Notes: generated by a model from the letters alone, not told the origin. Shown: positions 27,788 through 62,459, counted from the stretch's first letter. The stretch is 64,000 nt of DNA from Chloroflexota bacterium (GCA_016235055.1 JACRMK010000046.1:34958-98957), one strand, 5' to 3'. A program made the numbers and translations.

Positions 27788-28120
27788 ATGAGCACCCCCG
27801 TAATCGCCGAGCCGCCGTGCTTGGCTGAAGCGATTGAGCGCATCGTGCAGCAGTTTCACCCGCTGCGCATCATCCTGTTCGGCTCCTGGGCGCGCGGGGA
27901 CGCCCGCCCGGACAGCGACCTTGATTTGCTGGTGGTGATGCCGGAGGCGCAGAACAAGCGCGCTATGACAGTTCGCATAGGCAATTCGTTGAGTGATCTG
28001 CCGATCAGCAAAGATGTCGTGGTAACGACGCCAGCGGAGATCGTGGAGCACGGGCAGACTATCGGGCGGGTGCTCCAGCCGGCGCTGGCCGAAGGCAAAG
28101 TCGTCTATGAGCGCCGATGA
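27788..28120 (+). CDS. Nucleotidyltransferase (MNT/MntA-like antitoxin component)
   Basis: GSWARGD...DSDLDLLVV matches the GSx9-13Dx[DE] minimal nucleotidyltransferase motif; GGAGGAG upstream. Confidence 0.8.
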   Translation: MSTPVIAEPPCLAEAIERIVQQFHPLRIILFGSWARGDARPDSDLDLLVVMPEAQNKRAMTVRIGNSLSDLPISKDVVVTTPAEIVEHGQTIGRVLQPALAEGKVVYERR

Positions 28121-28508
28121 TGTAGGCACTTGGCTGGCGTATGCGCATTCCGACTTGGGGGCGGGTCGGTCACTCTTGCTCGGGCCTGAGCCTTTTTCAC
28201 GCCAGTCGTGTTTTTATGCACAACCGGCTGCGGAAAAGGCGCTAAAAGCTGTGCTGGTAGCGCATGGCATCAAAGTTCCGCACACGCATGACCTTGATCA
28301 TTTGCGTGAGATCATCCCGGGCGGGGCTTCGGTGAAAGTCGAATTCCCGCACCTCTATGCATTGTCGATCTGGGCCGTCGAGGCGCGCTATCCCGGCGAT
28401 CCGCAAGAGGTCACGGCCGATGAGGCACGCGCGGCGCTCGATCTGGCGGAACGAGTGCTGCGGGCGGTGGAGCGCGACTTGCGCGCCGGCGGCGCAGAGG
28501 CGTCGTAG
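28107..28508 (+). CDS. HEPN domain protein (toxin component), overlaps MNT gene by 14 nt
   Basis: 133 aa with HEPN-like helices (QQA/QPAAEKALKAVL); gene order MNT-HEPN with overlapping ends is the canonical arrangement. Confidence 0.75.
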   Translation: MSADDVGTWLAYAHSDLGAGRSLLLGPEPFSRQSCFYAQPAAEKALKAVLVAHGIKVPHTHDLDHLREIIPGGASVKVEFPHLYALSIWAVEARYPGDPQEVTADEARAALDLAERVLRAVERDLRAGGAEAS

Positions 28509-42535: not shown

Positions 42536-43507
42536 TCAATAGTTCTTCCGCAAGTCCAGCCCCGCGTAGAGGCCGGCGACCTGCTCGGCATAGCCGTTGA
42601 ACGGCTGCGTCGTCCGCCGGCGCAATTCGCCGATGCGCCGCTCGCTGCCCTGCGACCAGCGCGGGTGATTGACCTCCGGATTCACATTAGCGTAGAAGCC
42701 ATATTCATTCGAGGCAATCGTGCTCCACATCGTCTTCGGCTGCGTGTCGGTTAACTCGATCTTGACGACCGCCTTGATCGACTTGAACCCGTACTTCCAC
42801 GGCACGACCAGCCGGATGCCGCCGCCGTTCGCGGCCGGTAGTTCGCCGCCGTACAGGCCGGTCGCCAGCAGCGTCAGGTCGTTCATCGCCTCGTCGATAC
42901 GCAGCCCTTCCTGGTACGGCCAGGGGTAGAACGGCGAGCGCTGGCCGGGGAAGTCGTCCGGCTTGAAGAGCGTCTCGAAGCGCACATATTTCGCGGCTGC
43001 CGTCGGTTCGACCGCCTTCAGCAGCTTCGCGAGCGGGAAGCCGACCCACGGGATGACCATGCTCCACGCTTCGACGCAGCGCAGGCGGTAGATGCGCTCC
43101 TCGGGCTGGAAGCGCTTGATCATCTCCTCGACGGCGTACTTGCCCGGCTTGCCTACCAGGCCCGACACCTGCACGTCCCACGGCGACGTCTTGAAGTTGG
43201 CGGCGCGCGGCGCAACGCCCTCTTTCTCTTCCGTGAACTCGTAGTAGTTGTTGTAGTGCGTGATGTCCTGGTACGACGTCGCCGGATCGCCCAGTTCGTC
43301 CTTGCGCGCGGACGCGCCCGGCTGGGCCGCAGGCGGCGCCGTGGCCGAAGGCGCCGGCTGCGCGTCGTTGCCTGCCAGCGGACCGCACGCCGCAAGTGCC
43401 ATGCTGCCCGCCACCACGCCGGTGGCCTTGATAAACTCGCGCCGCGAGAGGTACACCGCCTTCGGCGTGACCTCGGATTCCGCGATGCGCGGATAACGGC
43501 TCTTCAT
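42536..43507 (-). CDS. msrP: Protein-methionine-sulfoxide reductase catalytic subunit MsrP (YedY-like molybdopterin oxidoreductase)
   Basis: Twin-arginine signal (SRREFIK), sulfite-oxidase-fold motifs (ITHYNNYYEF, RLRCVEAW, GGGIRLVVPWKYGFKSIKAV). Confidence 0.9.
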   Translation of the reverse strand: MKSRYPRIAESEVTPKAVYLSRREFIKATGVVAGSMALAACGPLAGNDAQPAPSATAPPAAQPGASARKDELGDPATSYQDITHYNNYYEFTEEKEGVAPRAANFKTSPWDVQVSGLVGKPGKYAVEEMIKRFQPEERIYRLRCVEAWSMVIPWVGFPLAKLLKAVEPTAAAKYVRFETLFKPDDFPGQRSPFYPWPYQEGLRIDEAMNDLTLLATGLYGGELPAANGGGIRLVVPWKYGFKSIKAVVKIELTDTQPKTMWSTIASNEYGFYANVNPEVNHPRWSQGSERRIGELRRRTTQPFNGYAEQVAGLYAGLDLRKNY

Positions 43508-43531
43508 ACAGCTCTCCCTCCCTGGGTGTGT

Positions 43532-46259: not shown

Positions 46260-47024
46260 ATGCGCAAAGAGATAGCAACCGTCGTGTTGGGATTAACAAT
46301 GATACTCGCGGCTTGCGGGCCGACCCCCACACCCGCCGCCATGATGCAAGCCGCGATGCCAACGCCTGACGCAATGATGGCCAAGCCGACGCCCGATGCG
46401 ATGATGGCCAAGCCGACGCCCGATGCCATGATGGCCAAGCCGACGCCCGACGCCATGATGGCGCGCCCAACACCCGACGCGATGATGGCGCACCCAACAC
46501 CCGACGCCATGATGGCGCACCCAACACCCGACGCGATGATGGCGCATTCGACCCCGGATGCCATGATGCAAGCCCCGGCCTGGTTTGGCGCATCGCTGAC
46601 CGATGTGCGCACCGGTCAGACGTTCTCGCTCAACGGCTTCAAAGGCAAGGTGGTGCTGGTCGAAACGATGGCGCAATGGTGTCCGAGTTGCCGCACGCAG
46701 CAGACGCAGGTGAAAGACCTGCGCGCGATGTTTGCCGGGCGCGATGATCTGGTGACGATCGCGCTCGACGTGGATCCGAATGAGCAGGCCGCCGACCTGA
46801 AGAAATACGTGCAGGCCAACGGCTTCGAAGGGTTCTACGGCATCGCGCCCGCCGCCGTGGCGCGCGAGATCGGCAATCTTTATGGCGCGCAATTCCTGAA
46901 TCCGCCGTCCACGCCGATCCTGATTGTGGACCGCCACGGCCTGGCGCATCCCCTGCCGTTCGGCATCAAGAGCGCACGCGATCTGGCGAGCGCCATCGAG
47001 CCGTACCTCAAGGACGCCATGTAA
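46260..47024 (+). CDS. TlpA/ResA-like thioredoxin-fold lipoprotein with tandem nonapeptide linker
   Basis: Lipobox ILAAC; seven to eight repeats of A[KRH]PTPDAMM; redox motif WCPSC; AAGGAG upstream. Confidence 0.85.
   Translation: MRKEIATVVLGLTMILAACGPTPTPAAMMQAAMPTPDAMMAKPTPDAMMAKPTPDAMMAKPTPDAMMARPTPDAMMAHPTPDAMMAHPTPDAMMAHSTPDAMMQAPAWFGASLTDVRTGQTFSLNGFKGKVVLVETMAQWCPSCRTQQTQVKDLRAMFAGRDDLVTIALDVDPNEQAADLKKYVQANGFEGFYGIAPAAVAREIGNLYGAQFLNPPSTPILIVDRHGLAHPLPFGIKSARDLASAIEPYLKDAM
46341..46560 (+). repeat. 27-bp tandem repeat array inside the tlpA-like gene (coding, in frame)
   Basis: GCCAAGCCGACGCCCGATGCGATGATG-type unit repeated about 8 times with third-position and K/R/H variation. Confidence 0.8.
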
Positions 47025-48006: not shown

Positions 48007-48174
48007 TCAAAGCAAAACCGTATGCACGCGCCCGGGCGCGCCCGGCGGCCCGCAGGCCGCGATGGCCATACTGCCCGCCACGACGCCGGCGGCCATGATG
48101 AATGCGCGCCGCGAGAGGTACGCCGCCTTCGGCGTGACCTCGGATTCCGCGATGCGCGGATAGCGATTGTTCAT
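48007..48174 (-). pseudogene. Truncated duplicate of the msrP 5' end (RBS plus twin-arginine signal peptide only)
   Basis: About 110 bp near 48060-48175 is roughly 90% identical to msrP 43395-43505 including the GGGAGG ribosome-binding region; reads MNNRYPRIAESEVTPKAAYLSRRAFIMAAGVVAGSMAIAACGP then terminates; end coordinate approximate. Confidence 0.5.
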
Positions 48175-48338
48175 ATTTTTCCCTCCCCTGGATATACGCG
48201 CAGGCCGCCCTGGTCCATTGCCTCCGGCTGTGGCAGCGTGCTGTTCATCTTACCGCCCTTGCCCGAATTGCGTGAACGGCCGCCGGCAACAAAAAGCCCC
48301 GCGTAAGCGCGGGGCGTGTCTGGCTGACCCGCTGCGGG

Positions 48339-49283
48339 CTACCCGCCCGCGCAGATGCTCATGTTCGGATAGAACTGCTTGCAGATGCGCGGCACCGACG
48401 GGCCGAGGATCACCAGGCCCAGCGCCGGCAGCAGCATCAGCACCAGCACCACGCTCATCTTGACCGGCGCGCGCTGCGCCTCTTCCTCGGCGCGCTGGCG
48501 CCGCTGAATGCGCATCATGTCGGACTGCACGCGCAGCACCTTGGCGATATTCACACCCAATTGCTCGGCCTGCAGGATGGCCGCCACAAAGCTGGACAAC
48601 TCCGGCAGGCCGGCGCGCGCCGCCATATCGCGCATCGCTTCGGAGCGCGTCTTGCCGATCTGCACCTCCACCAGCATCTGCGCCAGCCCGCGCGCCATCT
48701 CGTCGTCCCGCTCGCGCGCGACGCGCGCCATGGCCGCCTCCAGGCCAAGTCCGGCTTCCACGCTGACCGTGATCAGGTCAATCGCATCCGGCAGCGCGCG
48801 GCGAATCAAATGCTGGCGGGCGCGAATGCGGCTGTTCAGCCAGAGCACCGGCGCATAGAATCCCAGGCCAACCACCGCCAGGAAAACCAGGATCTGGTTG
48901 GCCAGCGGCAAATTGAGCACCCCGAAAAGCAGTAAGCCGAAGCCGCCGAATAGCGCCGCCAACACGACCCGCATCCCCAGGAAATCGGCCGGCGCCCAGC
49001 GAAACGGGTTGCCCGCCATATCGAGCTTGAGCCGGATCGCATCCAGGTTGACCTGCGGCATCAGGCGCAGCAGCAGTCGCGCCAGGTTGCGCAGTCCGGG
49101 CCGGATCACACGCTCATACAGCGGCTGGTCCAGATCCACCTCGTCCAGCGAGCGGACGCGGCGCCCGTAGTTTTCGAGGCGCGCCTGCACGCGATCGCGG
49201 CGCGTAGTTACCGCCAGGCCCGCGAAGACCAGAAAGATGCCGTAGGCCAGCGACAGCGCGATAATGACAATCTCGGTGGGCAT
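48339..49283 (-). CDS. tadC: Tad pilus inner-membrane platform protein TadC (T2SS F-family)
   Basis: 314 aa, N-terminal TM, cytoplasmic GspF-like domain, two C-terminal TM helices. Confidence 0.85.
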   Translation of the reverse strand: MPTEIVIIALSLAYGIFLVFAGLAVTTRRDRVQARLENYGRRVRSLDEVDLDQPLYERVIRPGLRNLARLLLRLMPQVNLDAIRLKLDMAGNPFRWAPADFLGMRVVLAALFGGFGLLLFGVLNLPLANQILVFLAVVGLGFYAPVLWLNSRIRARQHLIRRALPDAIDLITVSVEAGLGLEAAMARVARERDDEMARGLAQMLVEVQIGKTRSEAMRDMAARAGLPELSSFVAAILQAEQLGVNIAKVLRVQSDMMRIQRRQRAEEEAQRAPVKMSVVLVLMLLPALGLVILGPSVPRICKQFYPNMSICAGG

Positions 49284-49292
49284 GGGGTTGCG

Positions 49293-50267
49293 TCAAACCT
49301 CGATACTGATAATCCGGCGGATGACCAGCATGGCCGAGCCGACCAGCACCAGCACTGTGAAGAAGATCAGTTGCCCGCACAGCGAGTTGAAGAACTGTCC
49401 CATGTACGCGGGGCTGATGACAAAGAGCAGCACGGTCAGCAGGAACGGCATGGCGCCGACAAAATAGCCGGATGCCTGCTGCTGCGTGGTCAGGATGCGC
49501 ACCTCACCCTTGATGCGGATGCGCTCGCGGATCGTGTGGTTGATCGTGTCGAGAATGAGCGAGAGGTTGCCGCCGACCTCGTGCTGGATCAGCAGCGCGG
49601 TGACCAGCAGGTCGAGGTCTTCATTGCGGATGCGATTGCGCATGTTTGAGATCGCCTGATCGAACGCCACGCCAAGGCCGATCTCGCGCACCACCCGGCC
49701 GAACTCCTCCGAGATCGGCGGCTGCAGTTCCCGCGACAACAACTCCATGGACTGCAAGAGGCTGTAGCCGGACCGCAGCGAGGTGGACATCAGGCTGATC
49801 GCGTCGGGCAGTTGCCCGCTGAAGGCGCTGCGCCGCTGGTACTGGCGGAACACCAGGTACCAGCGCGGGCCCAGGTAGCCCAGGATGGCGCACGGCAGCG
49901 CCACATACCACTGCTTGAAGATGAGGAGTCCCAGCGCAAACGCGAGCAGCACGCCGGTGACCATCACGACGATGAACTCGCCGGGCGTCAGCTTCAGGTC
50001 GGCCTGCGCCAGCTCCAGCTCCAGCGTGTGGCCGCGACCGCGGCGCGTCAACTGGCGGTCGATGTCGCGCGTCAGGCGCCCGCGCGCGCGCGCGCCGCCC
50101 GTCACGTGCCCGCCGACGACGCTGGCGCGCATCGCATAGTGTTCCATGCGGTCGTCCACGTCGTACGGGTTGCGCGATAGCGCGCGCGCCAGCCCGGCAA
50201 AGAACAGGACGATCCCCAGCATGGCGAGGCCGCCGACGACCAGCGCCGCAACGGGTAGCCCGCCCAT
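49293..50267 (-). CDS. tadB: Tad pilus inner-membrane platform protein TadB (T2SS F-family)
   Basis: 324 aa with the same topology; start codon directly abuts cpaE-like stop. Confidence 0.85.
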   Translation of the reverse strand: MGGLPVAALVVGGLAMLGIVLFFAGLARALSRNPYDVDDRMEHYAMRASVVGGHVTGGARARGRLTRDIDRQLTRRGRGHTLELELAQADLKLTPGEFIVVMVTGVLLAFALGLLIFKQWYVALPCAILGYLGPRWYLVFRQYQRRSAFSGQLPDAISLMSTSLRSGYSLLQSMELLSRELQPPISEEFGRVVREIGLGVAFDQAISNMRNRIRNEDLDLLVTALLIQHEVGGNLSLILDTINHTIRERIRIKGEVRILTTQQQASGYFVGAMPFLLTVLLFVISPAYMGQFFNSLCGQLIFFTVLVLVGSAMLVIRRIISIEV

Positions 50268-51536
50268 CTAGCGTGCTCCGAACAGCCCGTGCTTCGGCCG
50301 GGAACCGGCCGCGCGCAACTCGGGCGCCATGTGCTGCGCCAGGTGTAACACCACCTGGCTGATCGGCGTTTTGGGACTGCTGATGACGAACGGCAGGCCG
50401 GACTGCACCGCCTCGACCGCCGTCTTGTCGTCGCGCTCGATCACGGCGACGATCGGCTGGCCGATGGCAGATTCGATCTCCTTGGGCGACACGCGTCCTT
50501 TGGGGTTATGCCGGTTCAGCACCAGCATCATCTTATTCGCCGGGTATTTGAGCAGTTCCGCAACCTCCAGGAACAGCCGCATGTTCTTGACGACATGCAC
50601 CTCGCTGGTGGCGACCAGCACGATCCGGTCGGCATGGTCGAGGATCGTCAGCATCGTCTCGTCGAGCGCGCTGAATGTGTCCACGATCACATAGTCGAAC
50701 TGGTCGCGCAGCGCGTTCAACACCTGGTCAACGGCATGCGGCGTCAGCGTGTCGGCAAGCTCCGGCGACGCCGGCGCCAGCAGGACCTTAACGCCGCTGT
50801 GGTGCGCGGCCAGCACGTCGGGCAACGCCGCCAGGTCCACCTTGCCGTTGGACGAGCAAATATCGGTGATCGTGCGCTGGGAGCGCAGGTTCATGTACAC
50901 GCCCACGTCGCCGTAGCGCAGGCTGGCATCCATCAGCGCGACCCGTTCGATCCCGCCGGTTTGCAGCGCAATGGCCAGGTTAACCGCCAGCGTGGTGCGC
51001 CCGATGCCGCCGTTGGCGCTGTACACGGCAATGATTCGACCGTGCCGCGACGGCGGTGGCGGTGGCGGCGGAGCGATCGCGGCCAGGCGCGGCGCCGAGC
51101 CGGGTATCACGCTGCCGGGCGACAGCGGCATAGGGCCAGCCGACGGCGCAGCGTACGCGGTGCGCCGGATCCCTTCCAGCAGTTCTGCCGACTCAAACGG
51201 CCGGATGATAAACTCGCGCGCGCCAGCCAGCAGTACGCGCTGCAGATATTCCGCGCTCGCCAGCGACTTGGGAATCACCATCAAGATGCGCGTGGCGGGC
51301 AAGCGCTCGGCAATCGCCTGGCTAATCTGCAGACCATCGGCGCCCTGGCCGCCCACCACCGCCACCAGCACGACGTCGGGCATCTTCTGCTCGGCCGCAA
51401 ACAACGCGTCGTGCAGCGAGGTCGCCGTACCCACAATCTGGATGGTAGACTCAAGGGACAGCAACTGCTCAAGCGCAGACAGCGTGTCCCGCTCGGCGTC
51501 GACTAACAGGAGTCGGATCGGTTGCGTTGAGTTCAT
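50268..51536 (-). CDS. cpaE: CpaE/TadZ-like pilus-assembly ATPase (ParA/MinD fold) with N-terminal receiver-like domain
   Basis: Deviant Walker A VYSANGGIGRTT; N-terminal about 120-aa REC-like domain (IRLLLVDAE...); Pro-rich linker. Confidence 0.85.
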   Translation of the reverse strand: MNSTQPIRLLLVDAERDTLSALEQLLSLESTIQIVGTATSLHDALFAAEQKMPDVVLVAVVGGQGADGLQISQAIAERLPATRILMVIPKSLASAEYLQRVLLAGAREFIIRPFESAELLEGIRRTAYAAPSAGPMPLSPGSVIPGSAPRLAAIAPPPPPPPSRHGRIIAVYSANGGIGRTTLAVNLAIALQTGGIERVALMDASLRYGDVGVYMNLRSQRTITDICSSNGKVDLAALPDVLAAHHSGVKVLLAPASPELADTLTPHAVDQVLNALRDQFDYVIVDTFSALDETMLTILDHADRIVLVATSEVHVVKNMRLFLEVAELLKYPANKMMLVLNRHNPKGRVSPKEIESAIGQPIVAVIERDDKTAVEAVQSGLPFVISSPKTPISQVVLHLAQHMAPELRAAGSRPKHGLFGAR

Positions 51537-51560
51537 AAAGAGCTATCGGACCGGTTGACG

Positions 51561-51953
51561 CTAGCGCGGCTTGCCCAATTGCGCCGCCACAAAACGGACA
51601 ATGCTCAGCGCGTATTGATAATATTCCCCGGATTGCTCGATCGTCGGCGCCGCTTCAATATCAGCCGGGTAGACCGATTGCGTCGTAAACGGCACGAGCG
51701 CCGCCACCGGCCGCTCAAACTGGCGGAACGCCGCATCGACCGAGACACACAGCCCCAGCAGGTAGGTCAGGTTCTGGCGCAGCAAAAAGTGCTTGGCGCT
51801 CGCCACCAGATATGCCTTCAGGCTCTTTTCGATCGCCTGCTGGCAATGAAAGGCGTGGATCGCCGTCGGGAAGTCGTCGACGTGCTGCAGAATCTCCGCG
51901 GTTCTAAGGTCGGACTGCGCATAGCGCAGCCAGTCTTGAGCATTTTCAGCCAC
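51561..51953 (-). CDS. HEPN domain protein, orphan (no adjacent nucleotidyltransferase gene)
   Basis: 130 aa, GTG start; helix pattern HCQQAIEKSLKAYL similar to the HEPN at 28107; sits between cpaB and cpaE-like genes. Confidence 0.7.
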   Translation of the reverse strand: MAENAQDWLRYAQSDLRTAEILQHVDDFPTAIHAFHCQQAIEKSLKAYLVASAKHFLLRQNLTYLLGLCVSVDAAFRQFERPVAALVPFTTQSVYPADIEAAPTIEQSGEYYQYALSIVRFVAAQLGKPR

Positions 51954-52004
51954 GGGTGCGTCTATCCTTTGTGTAGTGTGATGCAGAGCGTCCGTCGCGG
52001 CCGC

Positions 52005-52778
52005 TCACTTGACGAGCATGCCGTTGAAGCCGAAGCGAATATCCACGTATTCCACGACGATCGGCTGGGTCCGGAAGCGCTGGTGGTCGCCCGCCGCGCG
52101 CAGGACGAGATGCAGCCCCGATGACGTCTCGCGCAGGAACTTGAGCGTCAGCGCGTCCTGCGGCGTCAGCAGGAAGGTCACGTACGACTGCGCGCCCGCC
52201 TCAGCGCTCGCCGACCAGAGGCCGACCTTGAGCACCTCGACGTCCTGCAGCGCGATCTGGGTGATCTGCCGCCGGGTGACGCCGGTCGTGATGTTGCCGG
52301 TCGAGGCGACATCGTAGGACGCCAGCACGTCCACGTGGTCGCCTTCGCGCAGCGCCGATGCTACGCCGCTGACGGCGTCGATCGCGTATGCCATCGCCAC
52401 CAGGCCGTTCGGGACAATGTATGAGGCCTGGCTGCCGGCGCCGCGGCGCGTCTCCTCGATCTCTTTGTCGATCAGCATGCCGGGCAGGATGACCTGCCCC
52501 TCGGCGATCTGCGTCGCCGCCAGCCGGTTGTACGCGTCGACCGGATCGGTCAGCGCGCCGCGCGGCACGGAGGCGGTTGGCCAGTCGGCCAGCCCGATCG
52601 TATCGGTTGTCACCGTCGCGCGCGGCGCAATCGCCCGGCGCGCCACGACGACTTTGGTCGTCTGCACTTCCACCTGCGCCCGATTGCGATCGGGGTTGAG
52701 AAAGACAAATGACGCGATGAGTGCGAGGCCGCCGAGCAGAATGCCCAGCAGGATCAGAACGCGCCCGCTTCGTTGCAT
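52005..52778 (-). CDS. cpaB: Flp pilus assembly protein CpaB (RcpC-like)
   Basis: N-terminal TM anchor, SAF-like and beta-rich periplasmic domains typical of CpaB. Confidence 0.85.
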   Translation of the reverse strand: MQRSGRVLILLGILLGGLALIASFVFLNPDRNRAQVEVQTTKVVVARRAIAPRATVTTDTIGLADWPTASVPRGALTDPVDAYNRLAATQIAEGQVILPGMLIDKEIEETRRGAGSQASYIVPNGLVAMAYAIDAVSGVASALREGDHVDVLASYDVASTGNITTGVTRRQITQIALQDVEVLKVGLWSASAEAGAQSYVTFLLTPQDALTLKFLRETSSGLHLVLRAAGDHQRFRTQPIVVEYVDIRFGFNGMLVK

Positions 52779-52838
52779 ACGATTCTCCGAATGGCCGGCG
52801 AAAGTCGCTTGCGCAGCGACGCTGCTGCGCGCCGCCGG

Positions 52839-53855
52839 CTAGTTGGTCAGATTGACGCTCTTAACGCCCGACACACCACCACAGTTGGTTATACAGATCT
52901 CGCCCGGCATGATGTAATGCTGGAAATAGCCCATTACCGTCTTCGGATTGCCGGTCATGTTTACCACGCTTACCACGAGGCGCGCGAAGCCCACGACGTG
53001 GTACATCTTATGGCCCTGCTCCGAATTCGCTGTGTCGTAGAATAATACCGTCACCGACATCCCCTGATGCGCTACGATGGCGTCGCGAATGTTCTGCGTA
53101 TTGCCCAGGCCGGTGTCGCCGTCCAGGCAATCGCCGATGGACAGCATCGTCTTCGATGTCGCCTGATTCTGATCGCACTCGCCGCCTGAATACAGATAGG
53201 TCATGTACGGGCTGGCGGACTGACCGTTCAGCCAATTCAGCGTGTCGGTCGAATTGTTGTTGCCGCCATTAAAGTCGACCCACCCGAACGTGCCCGGCTG
53301 GTAGTTGGTGCCGTTGTCGTTGAACAGCGTATACACCTGACCATAGGACAATGGCGAGGTGATCGACGGCGTGTGCACAACCATCGGCCACAGCGGCGCA
53401 TTGGTCATTCCGATCGGCCCGGCGCACGCCGTGGCTTGCGCGGACGTGTTCATCGCGTTGAATCCGACGATGCCCATGAAGTAGGTGCCAAAGGTCACGT
53501 AGGTTGTGACCCGCACGCAGTTGTCGCTGGCCGACGGGTTGGTCGTTTTGACATCGTTGTTGCTGGGCAGGAAGACACCTTCCCAGTTGTCGGCGCGATT
53601 GCCGAAACCGCCGCCGCCCACCGTGTACGACTGAACCTGTCCTTCGATAATCGAGCGCGCCATCGCGTTACCCAGTGCATACGCGCCTGCCATGGAACCC
53701 GAATCGGCGGCGTTCTGCATCATGCGCCGCCGCTCGAAAACCTGCGCACCATCCAGCGCCAGACCCACGAACGCGACCAGCGCAACCGCCATCAGCGCCA
53801 CCAGCACAACGGCTTGCCCGCGCCGGCGACGGTCCTTCAAATGTAGGCCGTTCAT
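52839..53855 (-). CDS. TadG-like pilus-assembly protein (Tad N-terminal domain plus large extracellular domain)
   Basis: N-terminus RRGQAVVLVALMAVALVAFVGLALDGAQV matches the Tad/TadG motif; Gly/Asn/Thr-rich remainder. Confidence 0.7.
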   Translation of the reverse strand: MNGLHLKDRRRRGQAVVLVALMAVALVAFVGLALDGAQVFERRRMMQNAADSGSMAGAYALGNAMARSIIEGQVQSYTVGGGGFGNRADNWEGVFLPSNNDVKTTNPSASDNCVRVTTYVTFGTYFMGIVGFNAMNTSAQATACAGPIGMTNAPLWPMVVHTPSITSPLSYGQVYTLFNDNGTNYQPGTFGWVDFNGGNNNSTDTLNWLNGQSASPYMTYLYSGGECDQNQATSKTMLSIGDCLDGDTGLGNTQNIRDAIVAHQGMSVTVLFYDTANSEQGHKMYHVVGFARLVVSVVNMTGNPKTVMGYFQHYIMPGEICITNCGGVSGVKSVNLTN

Positions 53856-53927
53856 GGGACCATCTCCTTCTGCATCAGACCGCTCCCCCTTAGGCCTCGA
53901 AAGCCCTGGGACCTTCCGCCCTCACCG

Positions 53928-54359
53928 TTAATTGCACGTGCTATTATTGTTCGTACGGCCAATCCGCATGGTCGCCGTCGCCGCCAGCGGCAAACTCGGA
54001 ATAAACGACACGATCGGCGAGAACGTGTAACTGGTGCCCACCTGGATCCGATTGCCAAACGAGCAGTAGCTGCTGCCGGTGGCGCCGGCATCGTTCAAGC
54101 AGGTGACCGTAACGTCGCTGGATGTCATACCCACCGCGACGACGCGCTGCAAAGCGACCTGCGTGACGCATGCCGTATTCTGGTTAACTATCCCGTAGCG
54201 CGCGCCTTCTTCCGCCGCGCTCAGGACGGTGTTGTAATAGAAATAGGCGCGCGAGAACTCCAGAATGCCGAACACGATCAGAAACAGCAGGGAAGCGATC
54301 GCTGCAAACTCAACCAGCGATTGCCCGGCCTGCCGCATGCGCGCGACAATGCTCATCAC
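53928..54359 (-). CDS. TadE/TadF-like pseudopilin
   Basis: N-terminal GQSLVEFAAIASLLFLIVFGILEF (TadE motif); 143 aa. Confidence 0.75.
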   Translation of the reverse strand: MMSIVARMRQAGQSLVEFAAIASLLFLIVFGILEFSRAYFYYNTVLSAAEEGARYGIVNQNTACVTQVALQRVVAVGMTSSDVTVTCLNDAGATGSSYCSFGNRIQVGTSYTFSPIVSFIPSLPLAATATMRIGRTNNNSTCN

Positions 54360-54821
54360 CTAATTCCCGGTCGTCAAAACCATCATGTCAGCCTGCCCCA
54401 TCAGCGGAATCGTCGAGAAGCCGATGATGCCGGCGAAATACGGGGTCAGACTGTAGGCGACCGCGACGCGCACCGGGCAACCTGCGGCGGCAGAGCCGCC
54501 GGCGCACGTGATTGTTCCGCTGAGCGCTGGATAGCTGACCGTCACATCGCCGCACGCCACCGTCAGTGTGCCGGACAGCGATTCCTGCACACGCGAGCAG
54601 ACCGTCGCCGACGTTCCATCCGGCAGCGCAGCATAATATGCGCCCTCGCGCGCCGCGTTGGTCAGCGCGATGTAGATACGAAACGCGTTGGCGAAGTCAA
54701 CCACGCCGGCCAGCAGGAGGATGAGGAACGGCAACACGAGCGCGAACTCGATCACGCTCTGCGCCCGGCTGTTTTTGCGGTGCAATACTCCGACCATATC
54801 ACCCCATACTCCCTTAACCAT
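54360..54821 (-). CDS. TadE/TadF-like pseudopilin
   Basis: N-terminal AQSVIEFALVLPFLILLLAGVVDF (TadE motif); 153 aa; start may be the internal ATG 24 nt downstream. Confidence 0.75.
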   Translation of the reverse strand: MVKGVWGDMVGVLHRKNSRAQSVIEFALVLPFLILLLAGVVDFANAFRIYIALTNAAREGAYYAALPDGTSATVCSRVQESLSGTLTVACGDVTVSYPALSGTITCAGGSAAAGCPVRVAVAYSLTPYFAGIIGFSTIPLMGQADMMVLTTGN

Positions 54822-55056
54822 ATTATAACATTATAACGGCATAGCGGGAGCGCAACAATAGCCCATACGGCACAAAAGTCGCTGAACTGTGCCATCCGGC
54901 CAGCCGGCCAGCGCGGTGCCGTCAGGCTCTGCCGGGGTGGAAGGCGCCAATCCCCTCGCCTGCGACGCCGTTGGGTGAGCCTGCCGAACCCCGTCGCGGG
55001 AGAGGGTTTGGGAGCGGGCCAATCCGACTCTGAAAAGACCCAGACCCGATAAGCAG

Positions 55057-55220
55057 GGTGCATTTCACTTCTGGGGCGGCTAATGGGCCAACAAGCCGTC
55101 ATGCCGTTGCCCGCTGGCCCCTTGCCAGCGGGCGCTTGACGGTCAGCGGCGAGAAGCCGCTGACCAGCGCGGGCATCCAGAGGTGTTGCCCCTGGACTCC
55201 CGCTTTCGCGGGAGTGACGA
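55057..55220. repeat. Composite intergenic repeat, family 4 copy
   Basis: GGTGCATTTCACTTCTGGGGCGGC module; GCCCGCTGGCCCCTTGCCAGCGGGC and TCCCGCTTTCGCGGGA hairpins matching modules at 12030-12192. Confidence 0.55.
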
Positions 55221-55316
55221 TGTGGAGGGCTGACTGGTTATGCGCCGAATCTCGCCCCTAATCTGAAATACACCCGATAAGAACATTTGTTTCATTGGTG
55301 GTTCATCCTGTGGTAT

Positions 55317-55322
55317 TATAAT
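55317..55322 (+). promoter_or_regulatory. -10 hexamer TATAAT 6 nt upstream of ATG (leaderless-type)
   Basis: GGTATTATAATGATGCCATG. Confidence 0.45.
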
Positions 55323-55328
55323 GATGCC

Positions 55329-56690
55329 ATGCCCCAGCCGATCCATTTTGAGAAAGGCGCGACGCAGACCGTCGCCTTTGTGCCCGGCGCCGACGCGACC
55401 GCCATCGCCGAGACGATGGTCGCCTTCGCCAATGCCGAGGGCGGCAGCCTGTTCATCGGCATGAGCGCCGACGGCCGCATCCACGACCTGTCCGGCGAGG
55501 ATGTCGACGCCTCCGTCACGCGCGCGCAGTCGCTCTGCCGCCCGCCGGTGCGCTCCGAGTGGCAGCGCGTCGAGACGCCGGCCGGCTTCGCCATCGGCAT
55601 CACCATCGCGCGCAGCCCCGAATTGCACTCGCTGGCCGACGGCCGCGTGCTGATCCGCGCCGGCGCGGAGAACCGGCCGCTGGCCGGCTCCGAGATCCGC
55701 CAACTGGCGGCGACCAAGGGCAGCGGCGATTTCGAAGCGGAACTGGTGCCTGCCGCGCGCCGCGCCGATCTCAGCGACGCCCTCATCAAGGAGTACATCG
55801 CCAAGCGCGAGGAGAAGCAGCGCCGTCGCTTTGCCCAGCCCGCCGACGAGATCCTGCGCGACGCCGCGTTCACCGACGAGCACGGCAACCCGACCGTGGC
55901 CGGATTGCTGCTGCTCGGGCACAACCCGCAAGCGCTCCTGCCGCAGAGCGGGCTCGTCTTCGTGCGCTTCCCCGGCACCCAGCCGACCTCCGGCGAGAAA
56001 GCCGGTTACGGCCGCCGCGAGGAGATCGGCGGCCCCCTGCCGCGCCTGACCGAAGAGGCGTGGGACTTGATTCACCAGGAGATGCGCGTCGGCGCCGTCG
56101 TCACCGGCCTGCGCCGGCAGGAGACGACCGAGTACCCGCCGTTCGCCGTGCGCGAGGCGCTGATCAACGCCGTGGCGCACCGCGACTACCGGCTGGGCGG
56201 TCGGCGCATCGAGGTGCGCATGTTCGACGACCGGCTGGAGATCATCAGCCCCGGCGGGCTGGCCGGCTACATCACCGTGGACAACATTGTCGAGGAGCAC
56301 TTCTCGCGCAACCCGCGCATCGTGCACGGCCTGTTCCAGTGGGGCTACATCGAGGAGCTCGGGCTCGGCGTGGACAAGATGATCGACGACATGCTGGCCG
56401 CCGGGCACCCGCCGCCCAAGTTCAAGCCCGCGCCGTACTCGTTCACCGTGATCCTGTCGAACCAGAAACAGCGCGCGCCGATGCCGACCTGGCAGAAGAA
56501 CATCAGCGAGCGCCAGAAGCGCGCCGTGCAGTACGTGCAGGAGAACGGGCGCATCACCAATCGCGAGTACCAGCAACTGTGCCCCGACGTCAGCGCCGAG
56601 ACGCTGCGCATCGATCTGGCCGACCTGGTCGACAAGGGCCTGCTGATCCGCATCGGCGACAAGAAGGGCACCTATTACATGCTGAAATGA
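55329..56690 (+). CDS. Schlafen/AlbA_2-type ATP-binding protein with HATPase_c_4 and C-terminal HTH (RecG-C-terminal-like putative regulator)
   Basis: N-terminal AFANAEGGSLFIGMSADGRI (AlbA_2 pattern); middle REALINAVAHRDY; C-terminal winged-helix-like segment. Confidence 0.75.
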   Translation: MPQPIHFEKGATQTVAFVPGADATAIAETMVAFANAEGGSLFIGMSADGRIHDLSGEDVDASVTRAQSLCRPPVRSEWQRVETPAGFAIGITIARSPELHSLADGRVLIRAGAENRPLAGSEIRQLAATKGSGDFEAELVPAARRADLSDALIKEYIAKREEKQRRRFAQPADEILRDAAFTDEHGNPTVAGLLLLGHNPQALLPQSGLVFVRFPGTQPTSGEKAGYGRREEIGGPLPRLTEEAWDLIHQEMRVGAVVTGLRRQETTEYPPFAVREALINAVAHRDYRLGGRRIEVRMFDDRLEIISPGGLAGYITVDNIVEEHFSRNPRIVHGLFQWGYIEELGLGVDKMIDDMLAAGHPPPKFKPAPYSFTVILSNQKQRAPMPTWQKNISERQKRAVQYVQENGRITNREYQQLCPDVSAETLRIDLADLVDKGLLIRIGDKKGTYYMLK

Positions 56691-58347: not shown

Positions 58348-58686
58348 ATGAACATAACGGCGCAAGGAAGCCGCACGGCGTCAACACGTGGACGGTCCGA
58401 TCTGAACCGATTCAGACGAATCCTGAAGCGGCACATGCCTGATTTGGAGAACCGCTACAACGTCCGGTCGCTAGGCATCTTCGGATCGTATGTTAGGGGC
58501 GAACAGCGGAAGCGTAGTGATCTGGACGTGCTGGTCGAATTCGCCAAATCGCCCGACCTGTTCGAGTTCACGGCATTGGCCGACGACCTCGAGCACCTGT
58601 TGGGCGTTAAGGTGGATTTGGTCAGCCGGAACGGCCTGCAAGGCCGCTTGGCAGAGCGCATCTTAAGCGAGGTTGTGCCGGTATGA
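58348..58686 (+). CDS. Nucleotidyltransferase MntA-like antitoxin
   Basis: LGIFGSYVRGE...SDLDVLV motif; AAGGAG upstream. Confidence 0.8.
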   Translation: MNITAQGSRTASTRGRSDLNRFRRILKRHMPDLENRYNVRSLGIFGSYVRGEQRKRSDLDVLVEFAKSPDLFEFTALADDLEHLLGVKVDLVSRNGLQGRLAERILSEVVPV

Positions 58687-59069
58687 GTGCCGCGCGCCGC
58701 CATCTCGACTACCTGCGGGACATCGCCGACATGATGGGCACCGTTGTCGAGTTGACCGATGCGATGACGTTTGAGCAGTTTGCGACTGACAAACGCACGG
58801 CTTTGGCCGTCAGAAAGGCAATCGAGATCATCGGCGAAGCCGCCAAGCATCTGCCACCGTCCTTCCGCGATCGGCACGATGCAATCCCCTGGAAACAAAT
58901 GGCTGGCATGCGCGATCGGTTAATCCACGCTTACTGGGGCATCAACATTGACATTTTGTGGGCAACGGCAACCGAAGTGATTCCCAGCCTGCGCCCGCGC
59001 ATCGCACTAGTCCTGGAACAGGAGCTGGCACGCGAACAGCGCGCGCGGCCGGCGCCAGATGATACGTGA
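58683..59069 (+). CDS. HepT-like (DUF86) HEPN toxin
   Basis: R-x4-H-x-Y HEPN motif (RDRLIHAY); ATGA overlap with mntA-like gene. Confidence 0.8.
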   Translation: MSAARRHLDYLRDIADMMGTVVELTDAMTFEQFATDKRTALAVRKAIEIIGEAAKHLPPSFRDRHDAIPWKQMAGMRDRLIHAYWGINIDILWATATEVIPSLRPRIALVLEQELAREQRARPAPDDT

Positions 59070-59186: not shown

Positions 59187-60785
59187 ATGACCACGTTGTA
59201 TGCCGAGAAGCAGGCTGCGTTCGATTGGATCGAAGCCAACCGAGCGCGCCTTTCCGGCTTCTGCGAGCAGATCTGGAACTATGCGGAGACGGCGTTCCGC
59301 GAGTACAAGTCCGCGCGCGCGTATTGCGATCTGCTGCGCGCCGAAGGGTTCACCGTCGAGGAAGGCTCCGCCGAGATGCCGACGGCGTTCGTCGCGACGT
59401 ACGGCAACGGCGGGCCGGTGCTGGCGACGTTCTCCGAATACGACGCCGTGCCGGAGAACTCGCAGGAGCGCGTGCCGTACCCGTCGCCGCGCGCCGGCCT
59501 GAACCGCTGGGCGGCCGGGCACACCGACCCGCACTCGTCGCTCGGCACGAGCGCGCTGATCGGTGCGCTGGCCGCCAAGGCGATGATGGTCAAATACGGG
59601 CTGCACGGCACGCTCAAGCTGTTCGGCGAGCCGGCGGAGAAGGTCTGCGGTTCCAAGCCGGTACACGCCGCCAAGGGGTATTACGACGGGCTCGACGCGG
59701 CGGTCGTCTATCACCCCAATGCCAGCAACTCCGTAGTGTGGGAAACACACAGCGGCTCGTACTGGAGCGCGGCGTTCGTCTTTGAGTGCATCGATCCGGA
59801 GGAGTGGATCGACCAGCGCCTGCTGCCGAACACGAGCACCTCGCACGCGGCGGCGCGCTGTCCGGCGGCGATCGACGCGCTGTGCCTGATGTATACGCTG
59901 ACCAAGTACAGCAAGGAGGCGATGTTCCCGCACACCGGCACCTGGACGCTCAACGAGAACATCATGGTTGGCGGGCAGTGCACCTCGGACAACCTGCCGC
60001 CGCGCCTGGCGGTCATCCAGTACTCGTGGCGCTCGCCGACGCTCGACATCCAGGAGCGCGTATTCCAGGTGCTGGCGCAGAACGCGCGGCAGGTCGCCGG
60101 CGCGACCGGCTGCGTCGCCTCGGTGCGCTGGATCACGAAGACGCGCGTCGGCCTGCCGAACCTGGCGATCTCCGACCTGGCCTACCGCAACCTGGAACTG
60201 GTCGGCGCGCCCCAGTTTGGAGACGAGGCGCGCACCTTCGCCCGCGCGATCCAGAAGAATCTCGGCTTCGAGCCGATGGACGACCCGTTCATTGCCGACA
60301 ACCAGACGCTGACGCCGCCGCCCGAACTGGAAGCGCGCGTGCGCCAGGGCCTGCCGCCGTGGCAGCTCAACTTCACGTCGGATGATTATGTGGAATACAC
60401 CTGGCACGCGCCGACCGTGCGGCTCTACACGGCGCGGCCGCGCCTGAAGGCGCCCAAGCCCGGTTACACGTACCCGGCATGGGTGAACAACGCGATGGGC
60501 GGCGTGCCGGCCTGCATCGATCCCGGCATGTTCGTCGCGGGCAAGACGATCGCCGCGACGATGCTCGATCTGCTCAAGTCCCCGGACGAGCTCGCCAAAG
60601 CGCAAGCCGAGTTCCGCGAGCGGACGGGTGGCGGCGTGGGCGGCAGCCAGTGGGTCGCGCCGCTGTTGGCGCGCGATTTCCCGCCGCCGGTCGAATTACG
60701 CTGGCCGGAGTACGTGCAGACGCCGCGCGGCGAGGAGTGGTGGGTGCCGACGGTGACGCACGAATCGGCCTACGTGAAGCTGTAG
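59187..60785 (+). CDS. M20-family amidohydrolase (aminobenzoyl-glutamate-utilization AbgB-like)
   Basis: 532 aa from internal ATG with AAGGAGG upstream; metal-ligand regions (GHTDPHS, EPAEK) typical of M20 peptidases. Confidence 0.8.
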   Translation: MTTLYAEKQAAFDWIEANRARLSGFCEQIWNYAETAFREYKSARAYCDLLRAEGFTVEEGSAEMPTAFVATYGNGGPVLATFSEYDAVPENSQERVPYPSPRAGLNRWAAGHTDPHSSLGTSALIGALAAKAMMVKYGLHGTLKLFGEPAEKVCGSKPVHAAKGYYDGLDAAVVYHPNASNSVVWETHSGSYWSAAFVFECIDPEEWIDQRLLPNTSTSHAAARCPAAIDALCLMYTLTKYSKEAMFPHTGTWTLNENIMVGGQCTSDNLPPRLAVIQYSWRSPTLDIQERVFQVLAQNARQVAGATGCVASVRWITKTRVGLPNLAISDLAYRNLELVGAPQFGDEARTFARAIQKNLGFEPMDDPFIADNQTLTPPPELEARVRQGLPPWQLNFTSDDYVEYTWHAPTVRLYTARPRLKAPKPGYTYPAWVNNAMGGVPACIDPGMFVAGKTIAATMLDLLKSPDELAKAQAEFRERTGGGVGGSQWVAPLLARDFPPPVELRWPEYVQTPRGEEWWVPTVTHESAYVKL

Positions 60786-60835
60786 CCAAACGCGACGCAC
60801 AAACGGAAGCGGGACAGGCATGATGCCTGTCCCGC
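60705..60835 (+). repeat. Direct repeat, left copy (3' end of M20 gene plus terminator)
   Basis: 131 bp; identical to 62092-62222 except 2 substitutions. Confidence 0.85.
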
Positions 60836-60841
60836 TTTTTT
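60811..60841 (+). terminator. Rho-independent terminator of M20 gene
   Basis: GGGACAGGC-atga-GCCTGTCCC followed by GCTTTTTTG. Confidence 0.7.
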
Positions 60842-61086: not shown

Positions 61087-61743
61087 TCATCTTCCAAGCA
61101 ATTCTGCATTCGACTGGAATAGAGGAATCTGTGTACTTTCAGTATCATCGCAGTCCGGTGAGAACTTGTATTTCACGTTGAAACTCATTTCTGAATAGCT
61201 GTAGGCTTGATACCCTTTAAAATGGGAATTGGAAAGCTGGGTAAAGCGATTCTCAATAGGTTTCCATACGGCGGTGCTCCAATATGAAACCGGATATCGT
61301 ATGCACGACCTCTCGTGAGCCCCACCATCTTGAACATCCAAATCGACAAAAACCAAGAATCGATCTGAACCGAACTTCACATACTCGACCAAGTAGTAGC
61401 CCTTGCCATGATACCAAACGTCTCGCCTGACCCCGACGTTTATCGAACCAAGCGCTTGTGCCTTGGTGATAAACGCCGCGACCCCTGAGGCATCTTGCAC
61501 GGCCGCAGTCGCCCAGAAGGTATTTTCGCGTTGAGCTTTACGCTGTGACTCAATTGTGCTGACAGCTCGATCATCAAGTGTACCATATGAAATCGCATTC
61601 GACGCGCCTTGGTAAACTGCGACGACGGCAGAGAATCCGACGAGGATGATCAGGAGGCCGATTAATCCCCTCAGCAAATTGCCAAAACATCCCGACTCGA
61701 TCAAAATACCCAAGCCAACAGCTCGAAAGAAGTTATCGCTCAT
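61087..61743 (-). CDS. Hypothetical membrane-anchored protein (cargo gene B)
   Basis: 218-aa ORF in AT-richer DNA where stop-free frames of this length are unlikely by chance; two N-terminal hydrophobic helices; ATGA overlap with upstream ORF. Confidence 0.55.
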   Translation of the reverse strand: MSDNFFRAVGLGILIESGCFGNLLRGLIGLLIILVGFSAVVAVYQGASNAISYGTLDDRAVSTIESQRKAQRENTFWATAAVQDASGVAAFITKAQALGSINVGVRRDVWYHGKGYYLVEYVKFGSDRFLVFVDLDVQDGGAHERSCIRYPVSYWSTAVWKPIENRFTQLSNSHFKGYQAYSYSEMSFNVKYKFSPDCDDTESTQIPLFQSNAELLGR

Positions 61744-62054: not shown

Positions 62055-62091
62055 ACACTTGATTCCATCGATACCGTGCGGTTTGCTCTGG

Positions 62092-62222
62092 CCGGAATAC
62101 GTGCAGACGCCGCGCGGCGAGGAGTGGTGGGTGCCGACGGTGACGCACGAATCGGCCTACGTGAAGCTGTAGCCAAACGCGACGCACAAACGGAAGCGGG
62201 ACAGGCATCATGCCTGTCCCGC
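62092..62222 (+). repeat. Direct repeat, right copy (duplicate of M20 3' end plus terminator hairpin)
   Basis: Same 131 bp as 60705-60835 with G-to-A at position 6 and loop ATGA-to-ATCA; followed by TTCATTTTC. Confidence 0.85.
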
Positions 62223-62459
62223 TTCATTTTCACTCGGGCGCGGTATTCTGTTCGGACCCTATCTGGCTGCGTCGGGATCGCGTAGGGGCGCACCGACGTG
62301 TGCGCCCGCCTGGCACGCTGCGGGCCGACACGCAGGTCGGCCCCTACCACCGGCGCTTTGCGGGTGGCTTTGCCCAATTCGCACGCATGTTCTAAGTTTG
62401 TGCTATAATAGCGACGGGCACAGAACATTAGTTCTCACTACCGCTATAGGAGAATCGCG

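Follow-up and report, generated by a model that had tools for sequence, protein, structure and literature searches.

A hexameric ATPase is regarded as indispensable to type IV filament machines, and Tad systems are nearly always encoded at a single locus. What, then, sustains a Tad pilus operon that has neither the gene for its motor ATPase, cpaF, nor that for its bulk pilin, flp? Such an operon lies at positions 48339-54821, on the minus strand, of a 64,000-nucleotide (nt) stretch of DNA, hereafter the window, from the metagenome-assembled genome (MAG) of an uncultured groundwater Chloroflexota bacterium (GCA_016235055.1 JACRMK010000046.1:34958-98957). Our results identify it as a derived form of the Chloroflexota Tad operon that is conserved and under selection and in which four changes are coupled. 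On balance, we think that it is probably a trans-dependent module, i.e. an intact, selected platform with a set of minor pilins, whose other parts are supplied from elsewhere in the genome.

Gene content of the operon and its canonical relatives

Pfam and NCBIfam profile searches, together with a reading of the sequence, identify eight co-directional minus-strand open reading frames (ORFs), all intact, in the order tadE, tadE, tadG-like, cpaB, HEPN, REC-cpaE, tadB and tadC. This is the order that a first-pass annotation, made from the sequence alone, had proposed, and its coordinates and its cpaE-tadB junction are likewise correct. The two leading genes encode a TadE-like minor (pseudo)pilin, TadE1 (54360-54821; PF07811, 49 bits), and a TadE-like minor pilin, TadE2 (53928-54359; PF07811, 52 bits). 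TadE2 keeps a canonical prepilin-peptidase site, G/QSLVEF, and the leader of TadE1 ends in ...SRA/QSVIEF; the true start of tadE1 may be the ATG at 54797 instead of the annotated one. The tadG-like gene (52839-53855) encodes a 338-residue protein with Tad (PF13400) and Tad_C (PF09977) domains and a hydrophobic, prepilin-like N-terminus. It is followed by cpaB/rcpC (52005-52778; PF16976 (RcpC/CpaB) and SAF, with TIGR03177 at 114 bits against a cutoff of 71), the HEPN gene (51561-51953; PF05168, 54 bits), the cpaE/tadZ-like gene (50268-51536), and tadB (49293-50267; PF00482, 69 bits) and tadC (48339-49283; PF00482, 66 bits), each of the last two with a single T2SSF domain. The codon-position GC pattern of the eight ORFs fits that of real genes in a genome of 65% GC.

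The eight genes form one operon-like block, as signalled by tight junctions and a strong terminator. Gaps between the genes are 0-72 nt, and at the cpaE-tadB junction (...CGC TAG ATG GGC...) the cpaE stop codon (50268-50270) directly abuts the tadB ATG (50267-50265). An intrinsic terminator on the same strand (48296-48315) begins 24 nt past the tadC stop and consists of an 8-bp all-GC stem and a 4-nt loop followed by TTTTTGTT (tail, 48288-48295). At the other end, a putative promoter region (54822-54860, minus strand) holds two TATAAT hexamers in overlapping register directly before the first tadE1 ATG, with TTGTTG 17 nt upstream; a consensus promoter scan did not report it, and the -35 hexamer matches at only three of six positions. 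A 7065-bp Logan contig (L001, SRR12113407) is 100% identical to window positions 48133-55197; it was perhaps built from the same reads as the MAG, and its gene call for tadE1 begins eight codons further in. Because the two assemblies are identical across them, the operon junctions are not an artefact of one assembler. MBI5878167.1, encoded on a 139,767-bp contig of a Chloroflexota MAG, has the same sequence as the window CpaE; the proteins of this MAG are numbered around MBI5878166-7.

In agreement with the first-pass annotation, no ATPase, pilin or prepilin peptidase is encoded in cis, which holds over 48 kb on one side of the operon and 9 kb on the other. Pfam searches of essentially all plausible ORFs of the 64 kb found no T2SSE (PF00437), Flp_Fap or Peptidase_A24 domain, and no T2SSE-type Walker A motif occurs in any of the six frames of the whole window. 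When the window was searched by tblastn with CpaF of the nearest canonical locus, the best match had E = 0.5, and tblastn found no cpaF remnant at the cpaE-tadB junction. Searches for the pilin, by phmmer with an outgroup Flp pilin (MLFNPREEGQGLVEYALILV...) and by motif scans of all six frames of the window, matched only the N-termini of the TadE proteins. The lack of tadV, which had been singled out together with that of cpaF and flp, is real insofar as the window has no A24 peptidase, but it is ordinary: tadV is a recognised "loner" of Tad systems (PMC6668835), and since the loci of canonical relatives have neither tadV nor a secretin within 10 kb, the lack of both is normal for this lineage.

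These canonical relatives have CpaE proteins 42-53% identical to that of the window (L002, GCA_038198935.1; L005, GCA_016200765.1; L003/4 in part) and, together with the distant complete genome L019, share the order HisKA_3 kinase and NarL-type regulator, flp, tadE, tadE, (large TadG/beta-propeller proteins), cpaB, REC.cpaE, cpaF, tadB, tadC. The rcpC-tadZABC clusters of the cultured Chloroflexota Roseiflexus, Viridilinea and Litorilinea match this order (bioRxiv 10.1101/2025.08.19.671072), and the CpaE homologues, named CpaE by JGI, are placed between cpaB and cpaF. With identities of about 50%, the window proteins are one-to-one orthologues of their canonical counterparts: TadE1 and TadE2 are 51% and 48% identical to TadEa and TadEb of L005, CpaB is 49-51% identical to CpaB of L002, L003 and L005, and identities to the proteins of L002 and L005 are 54-55% for TadB and 50-55% for TadC. 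The tadG-like product matches the N-terminal half of the L003 TadG-VWA protein with 26% identity over 360 columns. The window locus is thus a canonical cluster minus flp and cpaF, plus HEPN, and the HisKA_3 kinase and NarL-type regulator that adjoin canonical loci are no longer beside it. Its chromosomal context differs as well. In both L002 (14957-16684) and L019 (14789-16689), tadC is followed by DUF192, then by a ComF-like phosphoribosyltransferase and a ribosome hibernation factor (hpf), and the window operon lies outside this context and is therefore a relocated or paralogous copy.

Between tadE and cpaB, the canonical loci L002 (5910-9032) and L003 (1-1425 and 5131-9021) encode Kelch/beta-propeller and CARDB/CLIPPER proteins of 1040-1296 residues and a TadG-VWA protein. 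These large proteins, which are absent from the window locus, are candidate pilus-tip adhesins.

Distribution and selection of the motor-less clade

The arrangement without cpaF recurs, as cpaB-HEPN-cpaE-tadB(-tadC), in four further lineages, a result that bears out the first-pass reading of the junction. CpaE of these lineages is 78% (L009), 75% (L006), 65% (L007/L008) and 48% (L016) identical to that of the window, and L016 was found via its HEPN. In three of the four, the cpaE stop and the tadB start are 0-3 nt apart; in L016, they are separated by a spacer of 184 nt of simple repeats without a cpaF remnant.

The L016 spacer (2329-2511) and a second stretch after tadC (4451-4699) are made up of tandem repeats of CTGACTACT / CTGCCTACT type.

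How long has this state persisted? Within the clade, identity falls to 48-50% for CpaE and to 59% for TadB, almost as deep as the split from cpaF-containing relatives, and the loss of cpaF is therefore old. Pairwise dN/dS values for HEPN, cpaE, tadB, tadC and cpaB are 0.15-0.41 at dS of 0.44-1.6. Together with the intact ORFs, these values imply that purifying selection acts on the operon, which rules out both a recent wreck and an artefact of assembly. Moreover, the distance to the canonical genome L019 is nearly unchanged: TadB identity is 40-41% for the clade vs. 42-43% for the cpaF-containing relatives, and CpaB identity is 30% vs. 26-29%. Sites conserved between distant cpaF-containing loci are kept in the clade at 70-78% in TadB/TadC and 69-76% in the C-terminal domain of CpaE, and at about 50% in its receiver. 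On these grounds, the platform still looks like a working one. We considered relaxed constraint on TadB/TadC after the loss of cpaF and rejected it: the difference in conserved-site retention is about ten percentage points and is within the phylogenetic bias of the control.

The motor-less clade is rare. Among 185,579 species-representative genomes scanned with CpaE, only distant matches at 20-26% identity were found, in Bacillota, Actinomycetota and Vulcanimicrobiota, and a scan of JGI metagenome contigs with the clade alignment returned no further clade members; neither the MAG nor close relatives of it are present in these genome and metagenome collections. Likewise, an exhaustive HMMER search recovered one 50%-identity cluster of the tad-linked HEPN type.

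The CpaE receiver and the HEPN protein

CpaE of the window consists of an N-terminal pseudo-receiver (residues 1-129; nt 51150-51536), a Pro/Ala-rich linker and a MinD/ParA-type domain (residues ~165-405), with profile matches to Response_reg (44 bits, residues 10-123) and to AAA_31/ParA/CbiA (residues 167-402). The receiver-like N-terminus, from which phospho-regulated assembly had been suggested, is thus present, but it is not an unusual feature: all but one of 120 listed homologues carry PF00072, and the profile of this CpaE family matches the receivers of DesR, VraR, Spo0A and CheY. What sets the window protein apart is its catalytic residues, given here in CheY numbering. In outgroup (cpaF-type) homologues with an aligned receiver, D12, D13, D57 and S87 are present in 115 of 115 and K109 in 114 of 115. 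The window CpaE keeps only D12; D13 is Ala14, K109 is Arg (R112), the T/S87 site is broken by a two-residue insertion with Lys at the aligned column, and, as a check of the residue showed, the phospho-acceptor D57 is Ala59. The suggestion of phospho-regulated assembly fails on these residues; phospho-regulation would suit the canonical relatives, not the window CpaE.

The same remodelling is seen across the clade. The four crown-clade CpaE proteins have D-[A/P/G] at 12-13, Ala at 57, the two-residue insertion at T/S87 and Arg at 109, and L016 keeps D57 but has DG (D13 lost) and Arg109. Inside the clade, the remodelled receiver is strongly conserved, as exemplified by the invariant QIVGTATSLHDALF block. 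For this CpaE family, the norm is therefore a canonical receiver beside a HisKA_3 kinase, and the receiver of the clade is a secondary conversion to a pseudo-receiver.

The Walker A of CpaE (SANGGIGRTT) is without both lysines. A degenerate Walker A as a correlate of cpaF loss was rejected, because the nearest relatives that have cpaF share the form SANGGxGR[ST]T; the P-loop Lys is missing in 118 of the 120 listed CpaE homologues. The odd Walker A is in line with the description of TadZ as a low-activity ATP binder (PMC6668835).

Directly upstream of cpaE, at a distance of 24 nt, and 51 nt downstream of cpaB lies the HEPN gene. Its AF2 model is a helical bundle (pLDDT 89), for which the best Foldseek matches are ST0689, TT1696, AF_0298 and the sacsin HEPN domain (1WOL, 1UFB, 2HSB and 3O10; TM 0.72-0.76), and the predicted structure and the profile match place the protein in the HEPN fold and in family PF05168. 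The gene has the same position in L006, L007/8, L009 and L016, and it overlaps cpaE or sits within 28 nt of it in every lineage. Its dN/dS is 0.19-0.30. In all five tad-linked HEPNs, Gln60 (LRQNL) occupies the place of a conserved His, where xxH[DN]L is usual; the His of the x-H-[DNE]-L motif is present in 142 of the 150 nearest HEPN representatives. We read the tad-linked HEPN as a probably domesticated, non-catalytic part of the operon. Its candidacy as a defence or toxin-antitoxin gene was rejected, as it has no PADLOC match, no NCBIfam match and no MNT partner and has lost the conserved His. An MNT (NTP_transf_2) gene was found beside the tad-linked HEPN neither in the window nor in L006, L007 or L016.

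Elsewhere in the window, overlapping genes at 27788-28120 (+) and 28107-28508 (+) encode a classical pair of MNT (NTP_transf_2) and HEPN (PF05168, motif PHTHDL) proteins, which is the intact toxin-antitoxin-type counterpart of the orphan tad HEPN. A further pair, of MNT-HepT type (PF01934), lies at 58348-58686 (+) and 58683-59069 (+), 3.5 kb off the tad operon. The genome appears to be rich in nucleotidyltransferase/HEPN modules.

Possible function, surroundings and comparison with known systems

Altogether, these comparisons show that the operon descends from a canonical Chloroflexota Tad cluster and that, in the ancestor of the clade, cpaF and flp were cleanly removed, HEPN was fixed between cpaB and cpaE, the chemistry of the receiver was lost and the HisKA_3 and NarL-type genes were left behind; for flp and for the kinase and regulator, this holds for the window only. 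Of the machine, the operon still encodes three minor pilins that resemble prepilins, CpaB, CpaE as the scaffold, and TadB and TadC as the platform in the inner membrane. To our knowledge, no type IV filament is assembled in the absence of an ATPase of the PilB/CpaF family. Because, in addition, CpaF powers both the extension and the retraction of Tad pili (PMC6920026), a platform that is under selection implies that a motor exists somewhere. The peptidase must also act in trans, because TadE2 keeps its G/QSLVEF site while the window has no A24 peptidase. In our model of the trans-dependent module, CpaE would be a non-phosphorylatable scaffold that organises the TadB/TadC platform with CpaB; TadE1, TadE2 and TadG would form a priming or tip complex; and the hexameric ATPase, bulk pilin and prepilin peptidase would be encoded at other sites of the genome. 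Two-component control would no longer act on such a module. HEPN, we infer, would probably be a non-enzymatic adaptor or regulator in a CpaE-centred complex, which is the weakest step of the model.

Several observations weigh against a trans-dependent module. Of the 120 closest homologues listed in a search of a 5.8-billion-protein set with the nearest canonical CpaF, ten were looked up, and none of the seven that had a named source and an accession falls in the accession range of the MAG; the seven include the only other Chloroflexi-labelled CpaF entry besides the query itself and the Logan-linked ones, and that entry is not from the MAG. This test of a CpaF from the same MAG is a weak one, in that it covers the best 120 matches (at least 65% identity) and, of these, the named entries with accessions, and is limited by MAG completeness. 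Similarly, none of the 120 best CpaE homologues is a further CpaE of the MAG. The assembled MAG thus seems to lack both an orthologous cpaF and another canonical Tad locus; a more divergent ATPase or an unassembled region would have escaped these searches. Tad systems scattered over several loci are described as very rare (PMC6668835). The loss of flp and of the kinase and regulator is documented for the window lineage only, as the region upstream of tadE1 is covered only by the window and the identical L001, and the other clade contigs do not extend past cpaB. Finally, the gains and losses on one branch could equally mark a change of function.

Such a change of function would make TadB/TadC, the pseudo-receiver CpaE, CpaB, TadE/TadE/TadG and the dead HEPN a repurposed, motor-independent envelope complex, such as a short static pseudopilus, an adhesin anchor or an envelope or polarity scaffold, with no dedicated ATPase or with an unrelated energy source. 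That the losses of cpaF and flp, the arrival of HEPN and the degeneration of the receiver coincide on one branch, that this state has long been maintained under selection, and that neither an orthologue of CpaF nor another CpaE was detected from this MAG all speak for it, as does a receiver that is remodelled yet highly conserved through its QIVGTATSLHDALF block, suggesting a new constraint rather than decay. Still, we consider it rather unlikely, because TadB/TadC, set against the cpaF-containing relatives, have neither clearly accelerated nor clearly lost conserved sites, the prepilin cleavage motif is kept, the CpaF negative is weak, and we are aware of no precedent for an ATPase-free type IV filament platform. 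The bolder version, that of a Tad machine without dedicated motor or Flp pilin that would have the dead HEPN as a new subunit, work with no PilB/CpaF-family ATPase or with a heterologous one, and replace two-component control by HEPN and pseudo-receiver, we regard as distinctly unlikely.

It is improbable that the operon is a decaying, non-functional leftover of the deletion of its motor and pilin genes. Two components that are essential for any pilus are missing, the catalytic residues of the receiver and the conserved His of HEPN are lost, and the locus sits outside the tadC-DUF192-comF-like-hpf context; yet the eight ORFs are intact, the tight junctions and the terminator are kept, the architecture is the same in five lineages with CpaE identities of only 48-78%, and dN/dS values of 0.15-0.41 at dS up to about 1.6 largely refute decay. 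Two-component phospho-control of assembly through a phosphorylatable CpaE receiver, as first proposed, has become very improbable. The Response_reg match is above its cutoff (44 against 30 bits), the receiver of the relatives is canonical and lies beside a HisKA_3 kinase and a NarL-type regulator, and an OmpR-type regulator and a kinase are encoded 2-4 kb downstream in the window. However, four catalytic positions are replaced or disrupted in the window protein, the other crown-clade members are equally degenerate, L016 keeps D57 without D13 and K109, and the neighbouring two-component genes belong to a separate 4.67-kb block between direct repeats. An assembly or binning artefact, in which cpaF and flp disappeared through mis-assembly, is hardly credible: the source is indeed a MAG, but the Logan assembly is identical over its 7-kb contig, including all junctions, and cpaE and tadB are adjacent in four other samples or assemblies.

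The genes flanking the operon are unrelated to pili. To its left are a DsbD/thioredoxin pair, an OmpR-type two-component system and msrPQ; to its right are an AlbA_2/HATPase_c_4 protein, APH and the MNT-HepT pair. The 5' end of msrP is present twice, at 43375-43508 and 48042-48175, as 134-nt direct repeats of 87% identity; the copy just past the tad terminator encodes 55 residues that match the MsrP N-terminus, TAT signal included, at 84% identity. Between the repeats, a 4.67-kb block with genes for a kinase, an OmpR-type regulator, a thioredoxin-like and a DsbD-like protein looks like an insertion or a duplication-mediated rearrangement. Within its thioredoxin-like gene (46260-47024), positions 46326-46595 (+) hold at least eight tandem 27-nt repeats that encode a nine-residue unit rich in Met and Pro (PTPDAMMAK-like), a motif that may be related to metals or oxidants.

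On the other side, the divergent gene at 55287-56690 (+), next to the tad operon, encodes an AlbA_2/Schlafen, HATPase_c_4 and HTH protein; in PADLOC, it partially resembles Schlafen-like regions of proteins associated with pAgo, and no link to pili is evident. The 465 nt before tadE1 (54822-55286) contain several perfect 10-nt inverted repeats (55109-55133, 55141-65) and the motif CACTCCCGCGAAAGCGGGAGTCCAGG; the related CATTCCCGCAAAAGCCGGACGCCAGG is found downstream of tadC, and the two may belong to a dispersed palindromic repeat family. Further away, 151-nt direct repeats at 60687-60837 and 62074-62224 (95% identical), each ending in a 37-nt hairpin, flank a 1.4-kb island of low GC (0.57) with a 218-residue ORF (61087-61743, minus strand) without a Pfam match, which may be a small mobile insertion. 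Rfam gave no match within or close to the tad locus, its sole match in the window being a tRNA gene (136-208, +).

An operon that lost its motor and pilin genes long ago and is still under purifying selection means either that the platform is kept as a trans-dependent add-on or that platform and minor pilins serve a purpose in their own right. The operon also provides natural examples of how a true receiver domain can become a TadZ-like pseudo-receiver and how the HEPN domain of toxin-antitoxin systems can be fixed within an operon of structural genes. Its practical weight is limited, the organisms being uncultured and the clade rare.

Compared to canonical Chloroflexota Tad systems (type IVc, rcpC-tadZABC-type), the window operon has the same gene families in the same order, without secretin and without tadV in cis, and shares the CpaE Walker A SANGGxGR[ST]T with the nearest of them; it differs in lacking flp, cpaF and the HisKA_3/NarL genes, in having HEPN, in a CpaE receiver that is minus four of its five catalytic residues, and in its chromosomal context. 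With the multi-locus, "scattered" Tad systems that the MacSyFinder TFF-SF model allows, it has in common that components lie outside one locus. In those systems, the usual loner is tadV, while here the ATPase and the pilin are missing and the second locus was not found (PMC6668835).

For CpaE, the closest parallel is the atypical receiver domain (ARD) that is typical of TadZ (bioRxiv 10.64898/2026.07.08.737194). As in an ARD of TadZ type, the Response_reg match in the window protein comes without the acceptor Asp, the fold being predicted from sequence alone, and the match of its family to solved TadZ-like structures is confined to the C-terminal domain, for which the ParA-family ATPase 3EA0 is the best solved match of the family profile. 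Like TadZ of Eubacterium rectale and Aggregatibacter and CpaE of Caulobacter, the window CpaE has a non-phosphorylatable receiver-like N-domain, a MinD/ParA-type domain and an atypical Walker A, and it presumably shares with ARD TadZ/CpaE proteins the role of a localisation or recruitment hub (PMC6668835; bioRxiv 10.64898/2026.07.08.737194). In contrast to the classical ARD, the pseudo-receiver of the window arose secondarily from a fully equipped receiver; because all 115 listed relatives keep the canonical form, it converges on the classical ARD and was not inherited with it. The HEPN protein, finally, has the fold and family of MNT-HEPN toxin-antitoxin modules, and a 41%-identical homologue is part of a classical MNT-HEPN pair (L018); in contrast to these modules, the tad-linked HEPN stands without MNT, carries Gln in place of His and has a fixed place inside a pilus operon.

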